64,000 nucleotides of DNA, from contig JAFUSU010000028.1 in NCBI GenBank assembly GCA_017467515.1, forward strand, positions 128,399-192,398, in the 5' to 3' direction. Shown here piece after piece: positions 5,590 to 26,855 of this stretch (within the stretch, counting starts at the first letter, position 1; each line of letters opens with the position of its first letter). The notes beneath the pieces are model-generated. The model was not told where the DNA came from. It saw nothing but the letters and a program-made list of their open reading frames with translations, and did not search any database. The translations under genes and the position numbers were made by a program. The DNA is from Alphaproteobacteria bacterium. Lineage in GTDB: Bacteria > Pseudomonadota > Alphaproteobacteria > RF32 > CAG-239.

Positions 5590-7062
5590 TTACCCTGCCG
5601 ATCTTCCGCCGCGAGAAGCTGCCAATGTTTGCGGATCGAGGGTTACTTGTTTTGCACGACGGTGACGAGGCAGTAATCTTCGAATATTAGGCTGATTACG
5701 AAACTCCAAATAAGCGCGTAAAGCTTTTCTCTTAAAGCGCCCGATAACCCGCTTTCCTTTAGCGGAATTTCCCATACCGGATAAAGCGACAATTTTTGCG
5801 TGATTGCTTAAATCGGTAGAATCCGGTGTGTTGCCGGTATTTTGCTCCGCCGGTGCGGGAGAATTGACCTCATTGTTTACCTGTTGAGTTGTGTTTTGAG
5901 GGATATTTTCCCGATGTTGGGAGTTAGTTCGTCCTGATAAGGCGTAAAGATTTAAGGCCGTTGTTGCCATTGAAGAAAGAGTGTTTCCGCCATTCTCGGT
6001 ATTGGCAGAAGAATTAGTATGAGTCGGATCGGAAAAGGAATTTTGGGAAGATTTAGCATTATCATTTTTATCAAGCGAAGGTTTCTCCATACTTGGCTTT
6101 TCCATAGCCATATTTTGCGATATAGAATTTGCATTTGTGTTTACATTTTGAGGGGAGTAACCGCTGATATTTTGATTGGTTACGCTTTTATACATATTGT
6201 TTCCCTGTCGTTGCATAGCTTGTCCTACCCGATCCATCGTTTTGGAAACAGCACTTAGAGCATTTGCCGAAAGCGTCATAGCCCCCGCTGCGGTGTAAGA
6301 GGCTAAAGCAACCGCTGCAGATGCCGTAGCGGCAGCAACACAACCGGCGGCCGCAGCATAACAAGCTGCAGCACCGACAAGAGAAAGACCTAAAGTATGG
6401 GCTGTTGCCGCAACACAAGCATTACCGGCTTGTATACAAGCATTGGCCCCTTGCATTGCAATTTTAGCGGCATTCATTGCGGCTTTCCCGACAATCCTCA
6501 GCCCCTTAGCAGCTGCTCTCATTCCCTTAACGACAGCGGATAGTGCTTTAGCACCGGTCGATATACCTTTGCCTGCATAATAAATTGTTTTTCCTAAAAT
6601 CTTTTTGCCTTGTTTAAAAGCTTTTTTAAAGCGATTCTCTTTTTTCTTATTCTTTGTTTTTTTCTTAGGTTCTTTATTGGCTTCATCGTCTGAGGAATTT
6701 TGATTTTTTGAATCTTTTATTTGATTTTCAATCCTTTTCTTTTCGGCAACGGCTTCTTCGTGTTCTTTTTGTGTTTGCTTTATTTCGTCTTGAATCTGGT
6801 CTGCTTTAGAACCGAAAATAAAATCTAAAACCCGATCAACTTTTTTGTCGAAGTCATTGGATGATGAATTTTGCTGAGCCTCGGCAACGGCATTCTTATA
6901 TTCTTTATCAAGAGAACTGAGGCGATTTTCAAAAAGTTTTACTTTTGCACGAGCTTCAACCAAATTTCGCTTTGCCTCAAAAGGCGTAGAATTATGACGG
7001 AGCCTTTTTACCGTGCCTTTAAATTTTTCTTTGAGTGAGGATTTATTATTTGTTTCTGCCAT
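5590..7062 (-). CDS. Low-complexity ORFan: N-terminal coiled coil, Ala/Gly/Cys-rich hydrophobic core, Asn/Ser/Thr-rich region, strongly basic C-terminal tail
   Basis: 490-aa ORF lying between uvrA and ssb; MEKPSMEKPS internal repeat; C-terminus RFKRKALRAYLEFRNQPNIRRLLPRHRRAKQ; no homologue recognised. Confidence 0.5.
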   Translation of the reverse strand: MAETNNKSSLKEKFKGTVKRLRHNSTPFEAKRNLVEARAKVKLFENRLSSLDKEYKNAVAEAQQNSSSNDFDKKVDRVLDFIFGSKADQIQDEIKQTQKEHEEAVAEKKRIENQIKDSKNQNSSDDEANKEPKKKTKNKKKENRFKKAFKQGKKILGKTIYYAGKGISTGAKALSAVVKGMRAAAKGLRIVGKAAMNAAKIAMQGANACIQAGNACVAATAHTLGLSLVGAAACYAAAAGCVAAATASAAVALASYTAAGAMTLSANALSAVSKTMDRVGQAMQRQGNNMYKSVTNQNISGYSPQNVNTNANSISQNMAMEKPSMEKPSLDKNDNAKSSQNSFSDPTHTNSSANTENGGNTLSSMATTALNLYALSGRTNSQHRENIPQNTTQQVNNEVNSPAPAEQNTGNTPDSTDLSNHAKIVALSGMGNSAKGKRVIGRFKRKALRAYLEFRNQPNIRRLLPRHRRAKQVTLDPQTLAASRGGRSAG

Positions 7063-7166
7063 ATTTTTTACCCGACATCTTTCTGCTCAGAAATATAAAT
7101 AGAATAGGTTAATATTTATCATATTATAGCAGAATAAGTAAAATTTGTCTATTGTTTAAAACATAA

Positions 7167-7197
7167 CAAAAAAACCGCCCTGTAACAGAGCGGTTTA
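7167..7197 (-). terminator. Rho-independent terminator downstream of ssb (minus strand)
   Basis: Hairpin aaaccgccctgtaacagagcggttt (one mismatch) with a U-run on the minus-strand reading. Confidence 0.6.
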
Positions 7198-7216
7198 AAT
7201 GTGAAAATAAATAAAA

Positions 7217-7690
7217 TTAAAAAGGAATATCGTCATCCAAATCAGCAGGTGTTGCGGCAGATGAATTATCCCAACCGGCACCTGATGCAGAAGGCGCACC
7301 GGAGAAGACGTCATTGCCGCCGGCAGGAGCACCGTCACCGCGACCATCCAATAACACCAAATTACCGTTAAAGTTTTGCAAAACAACTTCTGTTGTATAT
7401 CTTTCTTGACCGCTGTTATCTTCCCACTTGCGGGTTTGTAATTGTCCTTCAATATAAACTTTAGAGCCTTTGCGTAAATAACGCTCGGCAATATCAGCTA
7501 ACTGCGGATTAAAAATAACGACTCGGTTCCATTCCGTACGTTCTTTACGCTCGCCGGAAAGCTTATCTTTCCAACTATCGGAAGTTGCAACCGTTAAATT
7601 GACAATTTTTGTACCATTAGCCGAATTGCTGACACGCGGATCAGCACCTAAATTTCCAACTAAAATGACTTTGTTAATGCTTCCAACCAT
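7217..7690 (-). CDS. ssb: Single-stranded DNA-binding protein
   Basis: OB-fold N-terminal region ([14 protein letters not shown]...), Gly-rich linker, acidic C-terminal tip DDDIPF. Confidence 0.95.
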
Positions 7691-19838: not shown

Positions 19839-21113
19839 ATGGAAAAGAAAAGATACTTGAGAGATAGTTTATTTGTATTAGGATCAACAGCAATATCGCT
19901 GCTTGGCATAGGTTGGCATAGTTTAAAAAAAGCGGAAAAAATCTCTCAAACAGAATTTACCGATAAAGTTGTTTTTCTTAATAATCAAAGAATTCCATTG
20001 CAAGAATTTTATGAGAATGTATCTTACCAAGATGGCTATTGGGTATATAAAGATAGAAAAGGTAAAAATCGTAAGATAGATTTCATTTCTGATTTCGTTC
20101 ATAAAAAGAATAAGATAGAGGCTAAAAAATGGCTCAAAAATCAAAAGTCTTTATATCATATTGTTGATACAATCTATTATCGGAAAGTTAAAAATAGCGG
20201 ATATGAAACATCACAGGAAAATGTGGAATTTATAAAAGGAAATAAAAAATATAATCATATTTTTTCAGCTGGTTTGCGGACACCGCATGGTATATGTATT
20301 CGCCAATTCGAGCCGTTAGAGGGGGAAGAAAGATGCCCTCAAATTGATCAATTTAATACAAATCTTAATAAAACAGAAGAGCACGAAGCTGAACATAATC
20401 GCCATGAAGATCCCGGAAAAGACTTAGACAATCCGACATCTATGCGTCAGCTCGGGCAAAGTTATGAGTTGACATTTACAGAAGCGTCTTGGAGTGAGAT
20501 TTTGGCAAATATAAAACAATTGCTGGCACAACATGATAATTATATGAGAAATCATCAAAATTTAAATAAAATAACATCGCGTTTTAGCTTTTATAGAACG
20601 GCTTTACAAAAAGGAACGGTTAGATCCGTGCCGGTAGATCGGTTATCTGAAAAAGAAGTGAAATTTATTGCCGACAGCGTTTATTTTTACTGGATGTTAG
20701 ATAAATTTCCGATTTATCATCATAAATTAATGAGCAGAACTATTTGGGTATATAATGAAAAATTTGCTAATTATAACGCAACCCGAGAGAATAAAATAAG
20801 GCATTTGAGGGTGATGAAAGATAAATGTATTATCGGCGGATATAATTTTTATCCTTATTTGATAGGATATGAAACAGAAATCTTAAAACGTATAACACAG
20901 AAAGATAAAAAATTGTTTGTAGCTGATGCTCAGCTCAGGAAAGCCAAGCAAACGCACTTAGATGATTTGGAATCCACACGTTTGGAAAAAGGTTATCAGG
21001 CATATAAACAGAGAATAGCTCAAAATGCACAAGCGGCACAAACTATAAAAGCAAAAAATTATGTTGAAGAACATTTTGCACAAATCAAAAAATTCATAGG
21101 TCTGTCCAGATAG
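19839..21113 (+). CDS. Hypothetical membrane-anchored protein (ORFan, 424 aa)
   Basis: N-terminal hydrophobic segment LFVLGSTAISLLGIGW; no recognised domain. Confidence 0.45.
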   Translation: MEKKRYLRDSLFVLGSTAISLLGIGWHSLKKAEKISQTEFTDKVVFLNNQRIPLQEFYENVSYQDGYWVYKDRKGKNRKIDFISDFVHKKNKIEAKKWLKNQKSLYHIVDTIYYRKVKNSGYETSQENVEFIKGNKKYNHIFSAGLRTPHGICIRQFEPLEGEERCPQIDQFNTNLNKTEEHEAEHNRHEDPGKDLDNPTSMRQLGQSYELTFTEASWSEILANIKQLLAQHDNYMRNHQNLNKITSRFSFYRTALQKGTVRSVPVDRLSEKEVKFIADSVYFYWMLDKFPIYHHKLMSRTIWVYNEKFANYNATRENKIRHLRVMKDKCIIGGYNFYPYLIGYETEILKRITQKDKKLFVADAQLRKAKQTHLDDLESTRLEKGYQAYKQRIAQNAQAAQTIKAKNYVEEHFAQIKKFIGLSR

Positions 21114-22954: not shown

Positions 22955-23065
22955 AATGCTAATTTGTTAAAATATAATTTAATGCAATGAGATCTTTTTA
23001 TCTGTTCGGGGTAAAATTAGAACGCTTACGACGAGCTGAATGTCGCCATCTCCGCAAATTTGTTA

Positions 23066-23203
23066 AATGGTGCGCTTTTGCTTTGCGATTATGTGCGCGC
23101 GTTACACATTGCGCACCGCAAGCGACCGGCTCCGCCGTCTATCTTGCGCCGAACATTTCCGGCGCTACGATTCCGGACAGAAAATTACGATGAATATAGG
23201 CAG
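23066..23203 (+). repeat. Repeat B copy 3 (att-like aatggtgc + GC-rich segment + cggacagaaaattacgatgaatatagg leader motif)
   Basis: Shares aatggtgcgc...gtgcgcgcgtt.cacac..gcgca and ..cggac(t/a)a.a.tt(t/a)(t/c)gatgaatatagg with copies at 24362 and 26034. Confidence 0.6.
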
Positions 23204-23722
23204 TTAGGAGATAAATTGACGACGGTTTTTGTAAATCTGTATAAATGTCCATATACATAATACGATACAAGCTACAGCCGAAGGATATGCTTGCACATAA
23301 AAATTATGAATAAACCATAAAAGCAGATTAGAAACCAAAGCCCAACGCATTTGCTGTTCGTTTTTTGTTGTATACATAAAAATAGTATAACTGGCAGAGG
23401 CAATAATGGGAAATAGGCCGATAATACCGAGATTATTAACATAAAGCCCGATAGCCACGTTTATAATTAGCAGAATATAGGTAATATTTTTAGTTAGTTT
23501 GCCTTTATAAGATAAAATATTACGAATAAGGCAAACCACACTGATAACAATTGCCGCATAAGCCGAAAGCACAATGCATGTTGCAATTCCGAAAAGTGGA
23601 TCTCCGATTTGCCAATACATAAAATCTTTTTTATTTTTCTTGATAACCGAAATGGCAAGGCAAATTGCAGATAATAAGGAAAAAATATTTCCGATGATTA
23701 AATATGTTGGCATTTGTTTCAA
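23204..23722 (-). CDS. Small polytopic inner-membrane protein (possibly YgjV-like)
   Basis: 172 aa, about five hydrophobic helices; overlaps the downstream gene by 4 nt. Confidence 0.5.
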   Translation of the reverse strand: MKQMPTYLIIGNIFSLLSAICLAISVIKKNKKDFMYWQIGDPLFGIATCIVLSAYAAIVISVVCLIRNILSYKGKLTKNITYILLIINVAIGLYVNNLGIIGLFPIIASASYTIFMYTTKNEQQMRWALVSNLLLWFIHNFYVQAYPSAVACIVLCIWTFIQIYKNRRQFIS

Positions 23723-24081
23723 ATCTCATTTACATCAAGCAAAGGAATTATATTTATAACAGGTTCTTCATAAGGGTGAATTTCTTTTATAGCTGAAATT
23801 GTTTTGTTTAATTTTTCTTTTAAGCATATAACTTCTACTTTCATTTCCGGCTCTTGACTTATTTTATCGCGTTTGCCTATATATGGTTTTGAACCATCCA
23901 GAGGCCGCCATGTCCCGATAACTTCACTATATGATAAACAAGAATCATAATTACCGATATGTCCGGCATCAACTTTTTGCAAAGTTGCTTGTAGTTGTTT
24001 CAAATGCGTTTTCGGAATAAAAATTTCTAATTTATATTTTTCCATATTTTGTTCCTTTTCCGGATCATTATAAATTAGCAC
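23719..24081 (-). CDS. Small CutA/PII-like-fold protein (uncertain family)
   Basis: C-terminal IHPYEEPVINIIPL resembles the CutA HPYEVPEIIALPI motif; 120 aa. Confidence 0.35.
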   Translation of the reverse strand: MLIYNDPEKEQNMEKYKLEIFIPKTHLKQLQATLQKVDAGHIGNYDSCLSYSEVIGTWRPLDGSKPYIGKRDKISQEPEMKVEVICLKEKLNKTISAIKEIHPYEEPVINIIPLLDVNEI

Positions 24082-24106
24082 AAAAGAAAATCAATTAGTT
24101 TTTCAA

Positions 24107-24210
24107 AAAAGTCCGATAATTTAGGCGATATTGCGGTTTTCGAGAACGAGACAATCGGACTTTGTGAGAAGCAATAATAGCAACAAAAAACCCACCTTTT
24201 AGGCTGGAGG
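24107..24210 (+). repeat. Repeat A copy 1 (aaaagtccgataattt...cggactttgtgagaagcaataata.caacaaaaaacccacctttt)
   Basis: About 85% identical over ~100 bp to copy 3 (26630), which abuts the tRNA-Thr 3' end. Confidence 0.7.
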
Positions 24211-24361
24211 CAAAAAATTGCTCTTTGATGAGCAATTTTTAACGACAGGCGAAGTTTTATTATTGAGCTAGCGAGAGCAATCGAAGCGCAGCGAAATTAG
24301 AAAACGAGTGACCGAAACGAGTTAGCGAATGATAATGAGCTTACGAGTAAGAGGCTTTGTC

Positions 24362-24430
24362 AAAAATGGTGCACGTTACTGTGCGCGTATCGGACTAATT
24401 TTTATGATGAATACAAGCAACTGGAGTATA
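24362..24430 (+). repeat. Repeat B copy 1 (leader upstream of the HExxH ORF)
   Basis: aaaatggtgcacgttactgtgcgcgtatcggactaatttttatgatgaatacaagcaactgga vs copy 2 ttaatggtgcgcgatactatacgagtatcggactaatttttatgatgaatataggaagctgaa. Confidence 0.7.
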
Positions 24431-24490
24431 GATTGCAATTTCTTGACAGGATTTAATACAAATGCTATTATTACCATTAAGAGGTGTGTT

Positions 24491-25465
24491 ATGATTTTCA
24501 GAAAACCAGACCATTCAGAAACACAAGAAGATGCGCAAATTACTGAAATTATTAAATCAGCAAAATATTTTGCACAAAAAATAGCTCCGGATAATTGGAA
24601 AGAAAACGTTGAAAAGATATATAATGAGTTAACAGTCGTCCTGTGCGATGGAAACAGAACTTTTAAAGCTCTTCAAGATGGAAAACTTAAAGACATCAAA
24701 TTTTCAGCTGCGGCAGTTAAGTTTTGGGAAAATATTGATACTAACGAATATACGACATCTCAAGGAATTGCTATATTACCAAAGGCAAGTCCACATGTCA
24801 TAACACACGAATCATTGCACGCCTTTTCTTCTGATGCAGGCAAAACTGATGATGGTGGCGGATATATAAAAGTAGGTTCAAAATATGCCGAATTTGATAG
24901 AGAAGGGAGTATTGTTAAAAGAACAAATGATGACTTAAATGAAACTATAACCGATGCCTTAACAAGCAGAGCGTTAGGTCGTATAGGACCGAATGCTGGA
25001 GCAAGCTACGCTTCGCAAGTTATAATGGCAGATTTATTAATGGGTGAAAAACTTGAAGATAATGCTTTTATTCAGGATGTTTATTTCGGTAAAAGTGAAA
25101 AATTTGCCGAAGATTTTGATAAAACAATAAAAGCATCTAAAGTCAAATTTGCAGATTATTTACAAGGCTTTAAAATCTTAGGCTCTGAAGAAGATAATAA
25201 AAAATCAGATAAATTGCTTAAAGGTGCAGTAGAATATAATTTGCGTAAAGCCAAGACAGCCGAAGAAATTGACCATATTTATGCTTTTCAACAAAAAATT
25301 ATCAATTTTTATAAAGATGGTGGAATTACGACTAATTTTATGGAAGATGAAGATATTTCACGAATGGAAAATTTATTGAAATTTGCTGATAAAATGCAAA
25401 AACAATGCAAGTCTAATCTAGTTGCACAACAAATGATAGAGAAACAATTTGTAAACGAAGATTAA
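24491..25465 (+). CDS. Hypothetical HExxH-motif protein (putative gluzincin-like zinc metalloprotease; candidate effector/toxin)
   Basis: ITHESLHAF (HExxH) followed ~39 aa later by DLNETITDAL (candidate third-ligand Glu in an NE context); the start at 24491 (MIFRKPDH) has an aagaggtg SD, and the longer ORF-track start at 24329 runs through repeat B so is probably not translated. Confidence 0.55.
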   Translation: MIFRKPDHSETQEDAQITEIIKSAKYFAQKIAPDNWKENVEKIYNELTVVLCDGNRTFKALQDGKLKDIKFSAAAVKFWENIDTNEYTTSQGIAILPKASPHVITHESLHAFSSDAGKTDDGGGYIKVGSKYAEFDREGSIVKRTNDDLNETITDALTSRALGRIGPNAGASYASQVIMADLLMGEKLEDNAFIQDVYFGKSEKFAEDFDKTIKASKVKFADYLQGFKILGSEEDNKKSDKLLKGAVEYNLRKAKTAEEIDHIYAFQQKIINFYKDGGITTNFMEDEDISRMENLLKFADKMQKQCKSNLVAQQMIEKQFVNED

Positions 25466-25527
25466 GGCTGATTTTATTGGACTGGGATTTTATTTATCAA
25501 ACGGCTTGATTTATTACCTTTTACGAC

Positions 25528-25647
25528 AAAAGTCCGATAATTTATGAAAAATTGACATTTTCGTGAATGACGAAATCTGACTTTGCGAGAATCAACCCCA
25601 CAAAAGCAAAAACCGCCTGCATTGAGGCGGTTTTATAAAATGGTGCC
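25528..25647 (+). repeat. Repeat A copy 2 (divergent; ends with terminator-like hairpin aaaaccgcctgc..gaggcggtttt and aatggtgcc)
   Basis: Shares aaagtccgataatttatgaaaaattg...ttttcg...gactttg with copies 1 and 3. Confidence 0.6.
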
Positions 25648-25732
25648 TCTGAAGTCGAATGACAATTCGCAAAAAAGTTTGCTCATTGTCGGCTTCATCC
25701 GCCTCGCACTTAAAAGGCTCGGCGACTTCAGC

Positions 25733-26044
25733 TCCGGACTTACGGATTGCTCACGCAATCATATCGTAAGTCCTTTTTTATCTCCGATACGCATTAACAA
25801 AAATCCCACCTCTAGGGTGGGATTTTTGTTAATGGTGCCGCTGATAAGAAGGTGCGCGCGTTTCACACGGCGCATCTTTCGCTTACGCTCAAGACCTCGG
25901 ACGCTTTGCGCCTCGTCCTCCGCGGTTTGAAAATATCCAAACCGCTACGTCGGACTTAACAATGCCCCCGTAAGTCCTTTCCCTATCCCCGATACGCATT
26001 AACAAAAATCCCACCTCTAGGGTGGGATTTTTGTTAATGGTGCG
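25733..26044 (+). repeat. Two tandem GC-rich tRNA-derived units (cggactta..cgtaagtcc..ccgatacgcattaacaaaaatcccacctctagggtgggatttttgttaatggtgc) separated by a GC-rich spacer
   Basis: Unit 1 25733-25848 and unit 2 25951-26044; each contains a copy of the tRNA T-arm (cgtaagtcc), an 8-bp-stem terminator hairpin and the tRNA 3' end (ggtgccgctgataaga in unit 1). Confidence 0.7.
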
Positions 26045-26095
26045 CGATACTATACGAGTATCGGACTAATTTTTATGATGAATATAGGAAGCTGA
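26034..26095 (+). repeat. Repeat B copy 2 (leader upstream of the 150-aa ORF)
   Basis: See copy 1. Confidence 0.7.
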
Positions 26096-26169
26096 AAGAT
26101 AAGATTGAATCATTTTGAAATAATTGACAAAAGAAGGAATACAATATACAATAAATTATTATCTAATAT

Positions 26170-26622
26170 ATGGAGGAAAATCCCATGGTAGTATTTATTA
26201 AAGAAGAAACACTTAAATCTTCAAAAGAAAATGCTCTTCCTGAAACAGATTTACTGAAGCGCTGTACTAAAATGAAAGCATCACAAAATGGAAAAAAAGT
26301 AGAACTGCTAACCAACAATGATGAATTACTTGGAACACTAAATAGAGAAGATGATGCTCATTGTAATTTAGATATTACAAATGGTCATAGCTTGATGGGG
26401 AGGTATATTACCACTAGTGCAGATAAGAAACCCTCTTGGACTATTTATGAGTATAATGAAGCAAAAACGTCAAAAGTGAAAATCATTGATGAGGAACGCG
26501 CTAGAAGATTAAAAGGTCTTTTTAACGATATACGTAATGCGGCAGAGCGTTCATTAAAGTTAGGAAAAGATAGTGTATCTTTTAGAAATAGAAACTTATT
26601 AGATAATAGTCGTAAGATGTGA
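26170..26622 (+). CDS. Hypothetical protein (cargo ORF, 150 aa)
   Basis: ORF preceded by ggagg SD (aatatatggaggaaaatcccatg) and repeat B, followed by repeat A; no recognisable domain. Confidence 0.45.
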   Translation: MEENPMVVFIKEETLKSSKENALPETDLLKRCTKMKASQNGKKVELLTNNDELLGTLNREDDAHCNLDITNGHSLMGRYITTSADKKPSWTIYEYNEAKTSKVKIIDEERARRLKGLFNDIRNAAERSLKLGKDSVSFRNRNLLDNSRKM

Positions 26623-26629
26623 AAAATAA

Positions 26630-26746
26630 AAAAGTCCGATAATTTGTGAAAAATTGCTGTTTTCGGGAACGGATTTATCGGACTTTGTGAGAAGCAATAA
26701 TAACAACAAAAAACCCACCTTTTCGGTGGGCTTTTTGTTAATGGTG
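26630..26746 (+). repeat. Repeat A copy 3 (native tRNA-Thr downstream region with terminator hairpin cccaccttttcggtggg)
   Basis: Abuts and overlaps the tRNA-Thr 3' end. Confidence 0.7.
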
Positions 26747-26814
26747 CCGCTGATAAGAATCGGACTTACGACCCCGTCATTACCAATGACGTGCTCTACC
26801 ACTGAGCTACAACG
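26740..26814 (-). tRNA. tRNA-Thr (anticodon GGU)
   Basis: Reverse complement reads GCCGTTG-TA-GCTC-AGTGGTA-GAGC-A-CGTCA-TTGGTAA-TGACG-GGGTC-GTAAG-TCCGATT-CTTAT-CAGCGGC-A-CCA; clover-leaf with 7-bp acceptor (one G-U), anticodon loop uuGGUaa, encoded CCA. Confidence 0.85.
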
Positions 26815-26855
26815 GCACTTAATAATAAATTTTATTGTCTGTTTTACCTCTGTGC

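Follow-up and report, generated by a model that had tools for sequence, protein, structure and literature searches.

What does the open reading frame (ORF) at 24491-25465 encode, and where would its product act? The ORF lies in a 64,000-nucleotide stretch of DNA from an Alphaproteobacteria bacterium (contig JAFUSU010000028.1), the whole of which is referred to here as the window. The original prediction, made from the DNA alone, described the product as an HExxH protein and a candidate secreted zinc metalloprotease or effector encoded in a tRNA-linked array. We favour, at a probability of roughly two in three, a gluzincin-type zinc metallohydrolase that is made in the cytoplasm, acts most probably as a peptidase, belongs to an undescribed family, and is carried in a self-contained cassette. 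Conserved motifs and predicted topology both support the assignment to a gluzincin-type metallohydrolase of an undescribed family, and the evidence is set out below together with the rival functions that were weighed.

A conserved pair of putative metal-binding motifs

The two motifs that had drawn attention to this ORF, ITHESLHAF (residues 104-112, nt 24800-24826) and DLNETITDAL (residues 148-157), are present in the translated product, and their core residues are invariant in the close family. Conservation was assessed in two alignments, A1, which holds 23 sequences with identity down to 45%, and A2, which holds 36 sequences with a mean column identity of 22%. H106, E107, H110, N150, E151, T154, and D155 are all invariant in A1, and H106, H110, G129, E151, and Y173 are invariant in A2, where E107, S113, K127, L149, N150, and T154 are conserved in at least 90% of sequences. 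Relatives at about 20% identity still carry HExxH...LNEGxT[ED], and nearly all complete members among the 81 sequences retrieved place [LMI]NE[GAST][ILVM]T[DE] 36-53 residues past HExxH. The motif pair goes well past what a chance HExxH would give. The downstream Glu in an N-E context stands as first described, with a spacing from H110 to E151 of 41 residues rather than the ~39 given at the time.

Some members of one 90%-identity cluster of distant relatives, that of P0046 (P0046, P0078, P0080, P0081), naturally carry HKxxH in place of HExxH, a substitution of the presumed catalytic base.

An exhaustive search with a hidden Markov model of 1.84 billion cluster representatives returned 48 relatives only, indicating that the family is rare, and a repeat of the homologue search with the broad alignment A2 gained a single sequence. 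The distant relatives align across most of the protein length, some of them with low-complexity N-terminal extensions of 50-80 residues. All close homologues come from metagenome-assembled genomes (MAGs) of uncultured Alphaproteobacteria from ruminant and other animal guts, and, as judged from the metagenomic sequences retrieved, the family is undescribed and confined to bacteria of gut and rumen that have not been cultured. The earlier remark that the protein has no other recognizable family features was borne out, as it gave zero matches in Pfam, NCBIfam, PADLOC, PHROGs, and PDB sequences; scans of the first four libraries with the distant members added gave nothing above threshold, and no zincin was found among PDB sequences at E up to 10 in either single-sequence or profile searches. 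Among the 25 Pfam families that members matched below threshold, eight are zinc peptidase families (M57, SprT-like, M54, DUF3267, astacin, reprolysin_3, DUF2268, and M78).

Predicted fold

A full-length AlphaFold2 model built from the family alignment reached a mean predicted local distance difference test score (pLDDT) of 92.6 and a predicted template modelling score of 0.90, and a separate model of residues 1-215 reached a pLDDT of 89.2. The modelled order of elements is a strand (2-4), two helices (15-31, 34-46), five strands (48-95), the HExxH helix (101-112), four short strands that form a beta insertion (115-144), the Glu helix bearing N-E-x-x-T-D (147-161), a helix at 174-184, and further helices. 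Zincins of the gluzincin (thermolysin) type are built from a backing helix, a sheet, an active-site helix, and a glutamate helix (PMC9002140), and a zincin-like topology was assigned because the modelled order matches this architecture. Two features that define clan MA are accordingly found in the model: the invariant HExxH is placed on an alpha-helix, and the third-ligand Glu is predicted on a C-terminal glutamate helix at the level of sequence and secondary structure. The beta insertion that separates the HExxH helix from the Glu helix is distinctive to this family.

Foldseek searches of the PDB, made with the whole model and with that of residues 1-215, found no significant solved structure. 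The weak matches are enriched in zinc peptidases and include leishmanolysin, PepF (oligoendopeptidase F), PepO, stromelysin, and Pz-peptidase. Against BFVD, the top four matches are phage proteins of ~135-155 aa (E 0.006-0.02, probability 0.91-0.97), one of them labelled SprT-like; a second SprT-like label stands at rank 17 (probability 0.44), and lower-ranked matches include 'Peptidase', 'Zincin protease', and BepA-like entries. The zinc metalloprotease part of the original prediction is supported as far as sequence and model reach: the invariant HExxH and N-E Glu on two successive helices in a zincin-like order agree with a gluzincin, and no significant fold match to any zincin was obtained. 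As for the thermolysin-like or lethal-factor-like fold that had been proposed as a check, the Foldseek searches gave no significant match, and membership in neither group could be shown.

A real gene with its own start and promoter

Several lines of evidence show that the ORF is a real gene, with a 324-aa product of 36.6 kDa and pI 5.3. All 29 homologues found in a collection of 5.8 billion proteins (321-363 aa) start M-[IQ]-F-R, matching the ATG at 24491. The mechanically called ORF opens at 24329, and the product annotated at NCBI (P0001) has 376 aa. The homologue N-termini, the promoter, and the Shine-Dalgarno sequence (Table 1), together with the same promoter and Shine-Dalgarno layout in other genomes, confirm 24491 and not 24329 as the start, in agreement with the original prediction. 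The public annotation therefore starts 52 codons too early, and 24329-24490 is a read-through of the cassette leader. The promoter layout CTTGACA...TGCTA(G/T)TAT is kept 5′ of the homologues at loci L001, L007, L008, L009, and L012, and (A/G)GAGGTG is kept in homologous loci. Pairwise ratios of nonsynonymous to synonymous substitution rates (dN/dS) of 0.09-0.24 against seven orthologues show that the gene is under purifying selection. The start, the promoter and Shine-Dalgarno sequence, and the dN/dS values together mark the product as a functional, acidic 324-aa protein.

Table 1 Coordinates of the gene, its predicted protein features, and the surrounding cassette elements in the window
Feature	Positions	Strand	Basis or remark
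Cassette left-end leader, degenerate copy of the tRNA-Thr 3′ end, TGGTGC-N17-ATCGGACT then ATTTTTATGATGAATA	24365-24430	+	Repeat and motif mapping
Sigma-70-type promoter, TTGACA-17 nt-TATTAT, extended -10 TG	24443-24471	+	11/12; best site of the region
Shine-Dalgarno sequence AGAGGTG	24480-24486 (GAGGTG 24481-24486)	+	4 nt before the ATG; read off the sequence
Coding sequence, undescribed HExxH family, soluble protein	24491-25465	+	Homologues, dN/dS, hydropathy
N-terminal alpha/beta domain (~residues 1-200), zincin-like element order	24491-25090	+	AlphaFold2 models
HESLH (H106-E107-S-L-H110), putative zinc ligands H106 and H110, putative catalytic base E107	24806-24820	+	Invariant in A1
N150-E151-T-I-T154-D155, with E151 as putative third zinc ligand; acidic residue at +4 (compare thermolysin NEAISD)	24938-24955	+	Conservation
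Tyr173, candidate transition-state-stabilizing residue	25007-25009	+	Invariant in A2
C-terminal all-helical domain (~residues 215-324), conserved with the catalytic domain	25133-25462	+	Alignments and model
54-nt element, 9-bp terminal inverted repeats AAGTCCGAT...ATCTGACTT, cassette right end	25530-25583	+	Repeat mapping
GC-rich hairpin with A/T-run flanks, bidirectional terminator-like	25609-25634	.	Followed by tRNA 3′-end remnant AATGGTGCC at 25639-25647
tRNA-Thr(GGU), array anchor	26742-26816	-	Abutted by the last unit

Relation to known metalloproteases

Among the systems closest to this protein are the thermolysin-type gluzincins (MEROPS clan MA(E), for example family M4), which share the HExxH helix followed by a Glu in N-E-x-x-[ST]-D on the next helix, the LNE(A/T)ITD of this family being much like the INEAISD of thermolysin. 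They also share a beta-sheet and backing helix ahead of the active-site helix and a downstream aromatic or His stabilizer position, filled here by the invariant Tyr173. In contrast, the His-to-Glu spacing is 41 residues here and 20 in thermolysin-type enzymes, owing to the four-strand beta insertion, and this protein has a different helical C-terminal domain and lacks a pro-peptide, a signal peptide, and a calcium-site segment. The HExxH-19 residues-E spacing is absent and no Peptidase_M4 or M4_C match was obtained in Pfam or NCBIfam, so that the protein was not placed in M4. An hhalign comparison of the family profile with thermolysin puts HExxH opposite HELTH and LNEGITE opposite INEAISD, with an insertion of 24 residues in between; this motif-level alignment (P = 0.014, probability only 3%) is best taken as a lead and not as a test.

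The SprT-like and minimal zincins, small proteins of phages and bacteria, gave the best, still weak, structural matches in BFVD, and two family members have sub-threshold SprT-like Pfam matches at the HExxH helix. SprT-type enzymes use a third His ligand shortly past HExxH, whereas this family has no conserved His after H110 and instead an invariant Glu 41 residues downstream. The best member scored 15 bits against the SprT-like model (PF10263), below its gathering cut-off of 25.6, and together with the missing His this argues against membership. The ImmA/IrrE proteins (M78) are likewise cytoplasmic HExxH-plus-Glu proteases of integrated elements, but only one member matches them, below threshold (E = 0.11), and the gene has no conserved adjacent helix-turn-helix repressor gene.

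The HExxH proteases among effectors and toxins, such as anthrax lethal factor (M34), NleD (M91), NleC (M85), and the clostridial neurotoxins (M27), combine gluzincin-type sites with an essential Tyr and a distance of 35-45 residues from His to Glu. The long spacing, the Tyr, and the carriage on mobile or variable DNA are similar here; unlike those proteins, this one shows no sequence or structural match to them and has neither a delivery domain nor a secretion-system linkage.

Proposed mechanism and alternative functions

In the mechanism that we propose, the product would be a soluble two-domain enzyme of 324 aa produced in the cytoplasm. Its N-terminal alpha/beta domain would most likely hold a single zinc ion, with H106 and H110 of the HExxH helix and E151 of the next helix as ligands. 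By analogy with gluzincin-type metallopeptidases, the reaction would use E107 as general base, with D155 orienting a His ligand and Tyr173 stabilizing the transition state, and the C-terminal helical domain would probably cap the cleft or select the substrate. The gene is self-contained, having a strong promoter, a Shine-Dalgarno sequence, and a terminator of its own, and it forms one cassette by itself within a variable array next to tRNA-Thr(GGU). Since it has this form and no conserved partner gene, we infer that the substrate is probably something that the producer does not contain at all times, for example a foreign or conditionally exposed protein. If confirmed, this would add one more zincin metallopeptidase family, one that at present escapes Pfam, NCBIfam, and structure databases.

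Secretion was a central part of the original prediction. The protein would then be an effector or toxin protease, translocated or secreted against a competing bacterium or the cells of a eukaryotic host, with export by a non-Sec route (such as a flagellar type III, a type IV, or a type VI secretion system encoded elsewhere). We consider this unlikely, as it finds no positive support beyond the location in a variable island. Hydropathy analysis found no Sec or Tat signal peptide (first 30 residues, mean -0.88; maximum Kyte-Doolittle 19-residue window, 0.74) and no hydrophobic segment anywhere in the protein. The low-complexity extensions of some distant relatives would fit the effector reading. 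In this protein, M1, F3, and R4 do not vary, and the model places residues 2-4 in a beta-strand that belongs to the fold, which does not resemble a disordered secretion signal. Genes for flagellar export are found 5-7 kb upstream; they belong to conserved core synteny and are unlinked to the cassette, whose location differs in other genomes. The missing adjacent immunity gene would fit a target absent from the producer, and the homologue at L004 directly follows a gene for a 202-aa Fic-domain protein (7059-7667) in a syntenic island, with ASCH and GNAT genes downstream. However, flanks differ at every locus compared, and across these loci there is no conserved neighbour gene, whether for a secretion system or as a partner of the toxin-immunity or toxin-antitoxin kind; at L001, the tRNA directly follows the gene. 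Nor is the context typical for toxins, as had been claimed: the other island genes in the window encode a bPH_2 protein (bacterial PH domain), a HAD hydrolase, a YgjV membrane protein, and a CutA-like protein. This mundane, non-toxin-like cargo marks the island as flexible genome and not specifically as a home of toxins.

A protease of mobile elements or genetic conflict, acting inside the cell on foreign or defence proteins, is slightly less probable again. It could serve in anti-restriction or anti-defence, like the metalloprotease domain of ArdC, or in anti-phage abortive infection, like Lit. The cassette belongs to the flexible genome and occupies different loci in different MAGs, the gene stands alone with a strong promoter and no partner, and the distant relative P0042 lies in an apparent conjugative element (L025 1654-8778), where the gene for a MerR-fused VirD4/TraG-type coupling protein precedes it by four genes. 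Two other distant relatives, P0035 and P0043, are on contigs too short to show their context. Against this, no anti-phage defence model in PADLOC and no PHROGs entry matches the protein, tblastn with the protein and with P0042 found zero matches in 72,556 plasmids and 50,697 phages, and an ArdC-type domain that binds single-stranded DNA is lacking.

The least probable alternative is a zincin-like fold without peptidase activity, either a metal-dependent hydrolase of a non-protein substrate, in the manner of the DUF45/YgjP-type nucleotide pyrophosphatases, or a non-catalytic binder of zinc or a ligand; it would accommodate the lack of significant similarity to any peptidase family and the HKxxH members, which indicate that some lineages, at least, can do without the activity, but the three ligands, the catalytic Glu conserved in at least 90% of sequences, and the invariant downstream Tyr make up the whole set to be expected of a catalyst, beyond mere metal binding, and the NExx[ST][DE] helix is the signature of peptidase-type gluzincins.

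The cassette array at tRNA-Thr(GGU)

The tRNA-linked array with a shared leader was confirmed when the repeats and the tRNA-Thr(GGU) gene were mapped. The repeats of the window cluster between 23064 and 26760 and delimit three cassettes (23064-24203, 24204-25648, and 25649-26741), of which the HExxH gene occupies the middle one rather than the first, where the original prediction had put it. Each unit starts with a left end composed of a degenerate tRNA-Thr 3′ end and ATTTTTATGATGAATA (23066, 24365, and 26036). The leader of the HExxH cassette and that at 26036-26101 are copies of one repeat (D4), 82% identical over 66 nt, and the same leader is found 5′ of the homologues at L004, L007, and L008. 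Repeats derived from the tRNA 3′ end lie at 23064-23215, 24365-24430, 25831-25851, and 26036-26101, and these copies look like traces that a series of insertions at the tRNA has left behind. At ~25833-25850, a stretch of 18 nt (TGGTGCCGCTGATAAGAA) repeats the tRNA 3′ end exactly. In eight of 12 other loci, tRNA-Thr(GGU) lies on the opposite strand 0.2-8 kb downstream of the homologue, even where the flanks differ.

Each cassette is closed by a copy of the 54-nt element, the other two copies in the window lying at 24109-24162 and 26632-26685, and a terminator-like hairpin follows this right-end element in each unit. The element has a constant length and the form AAGTCCGATAA...ATCGGACTT, with 9-bp inverted repeats 36 nt apart. 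In other MAGs, it occurs in 1-4 copies at a spacing of ~1-1.8 kb, with copies at L008 (6617, 8423, 9636, 10786), L007 (4182, 5459, 6894), L011/L022 (L011 13761, 14765, 15965), L001 (9036), and L004 (9036). The arms are kept in sequence with no compensatory change or covariation, and for this reason a protein-binding DNA site is favoured over an RNA structure. An RNA reading of the repeat was rejected as the leading idea on these grounds, Rfam having returned sub-threshold noise only.

No integrase-family Pfam domain was recorded within 8-9 kb at five loci or among the island ORFs scanned in the window. Judged from its layout, the arrangement is integron-like or cis-mobilizable. In several MAGs, and with no integrase close by, single genes that are unrelated stand between the same 54-nt element and tRNA-Thr-derived boundaries, which may represent a cassette-capture system. 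A new family alone would be an incremental gain in annotation, and the greater value lies in the cassette vehicle; the array may be more unusual than the enzyme itself and may merit separate study. A further-reaching and doubtful idea is that a new gluzincin-like family is spreading in gut Alphaproteobacteria as cargo of integrase-less, integron-like single-gene cassettes beside tRNA-Thr(GGU), bounded by the tRNA-Thr 3′ copy and the 54-nt site, and that its target is a foreign protein of a host, phage, or competitor.

Other open reading frames of the region

The third cassette carries an orphan ORF of 150 aa (26170-26622, +) without a match in any family library, preceded by the same leader and by a promoter, TTGACA-17-TACAAT (26124-26152). 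A 424-aa orphan in the same variable region (19839-21113, +), without a Pfam or NCBIfam match, has an N-terminal hydrophobic segment and an HEAEH motif of its own. Paralogy between this ORF and the HExxH gene was ruled out by an hhalign probability of 0.16%.
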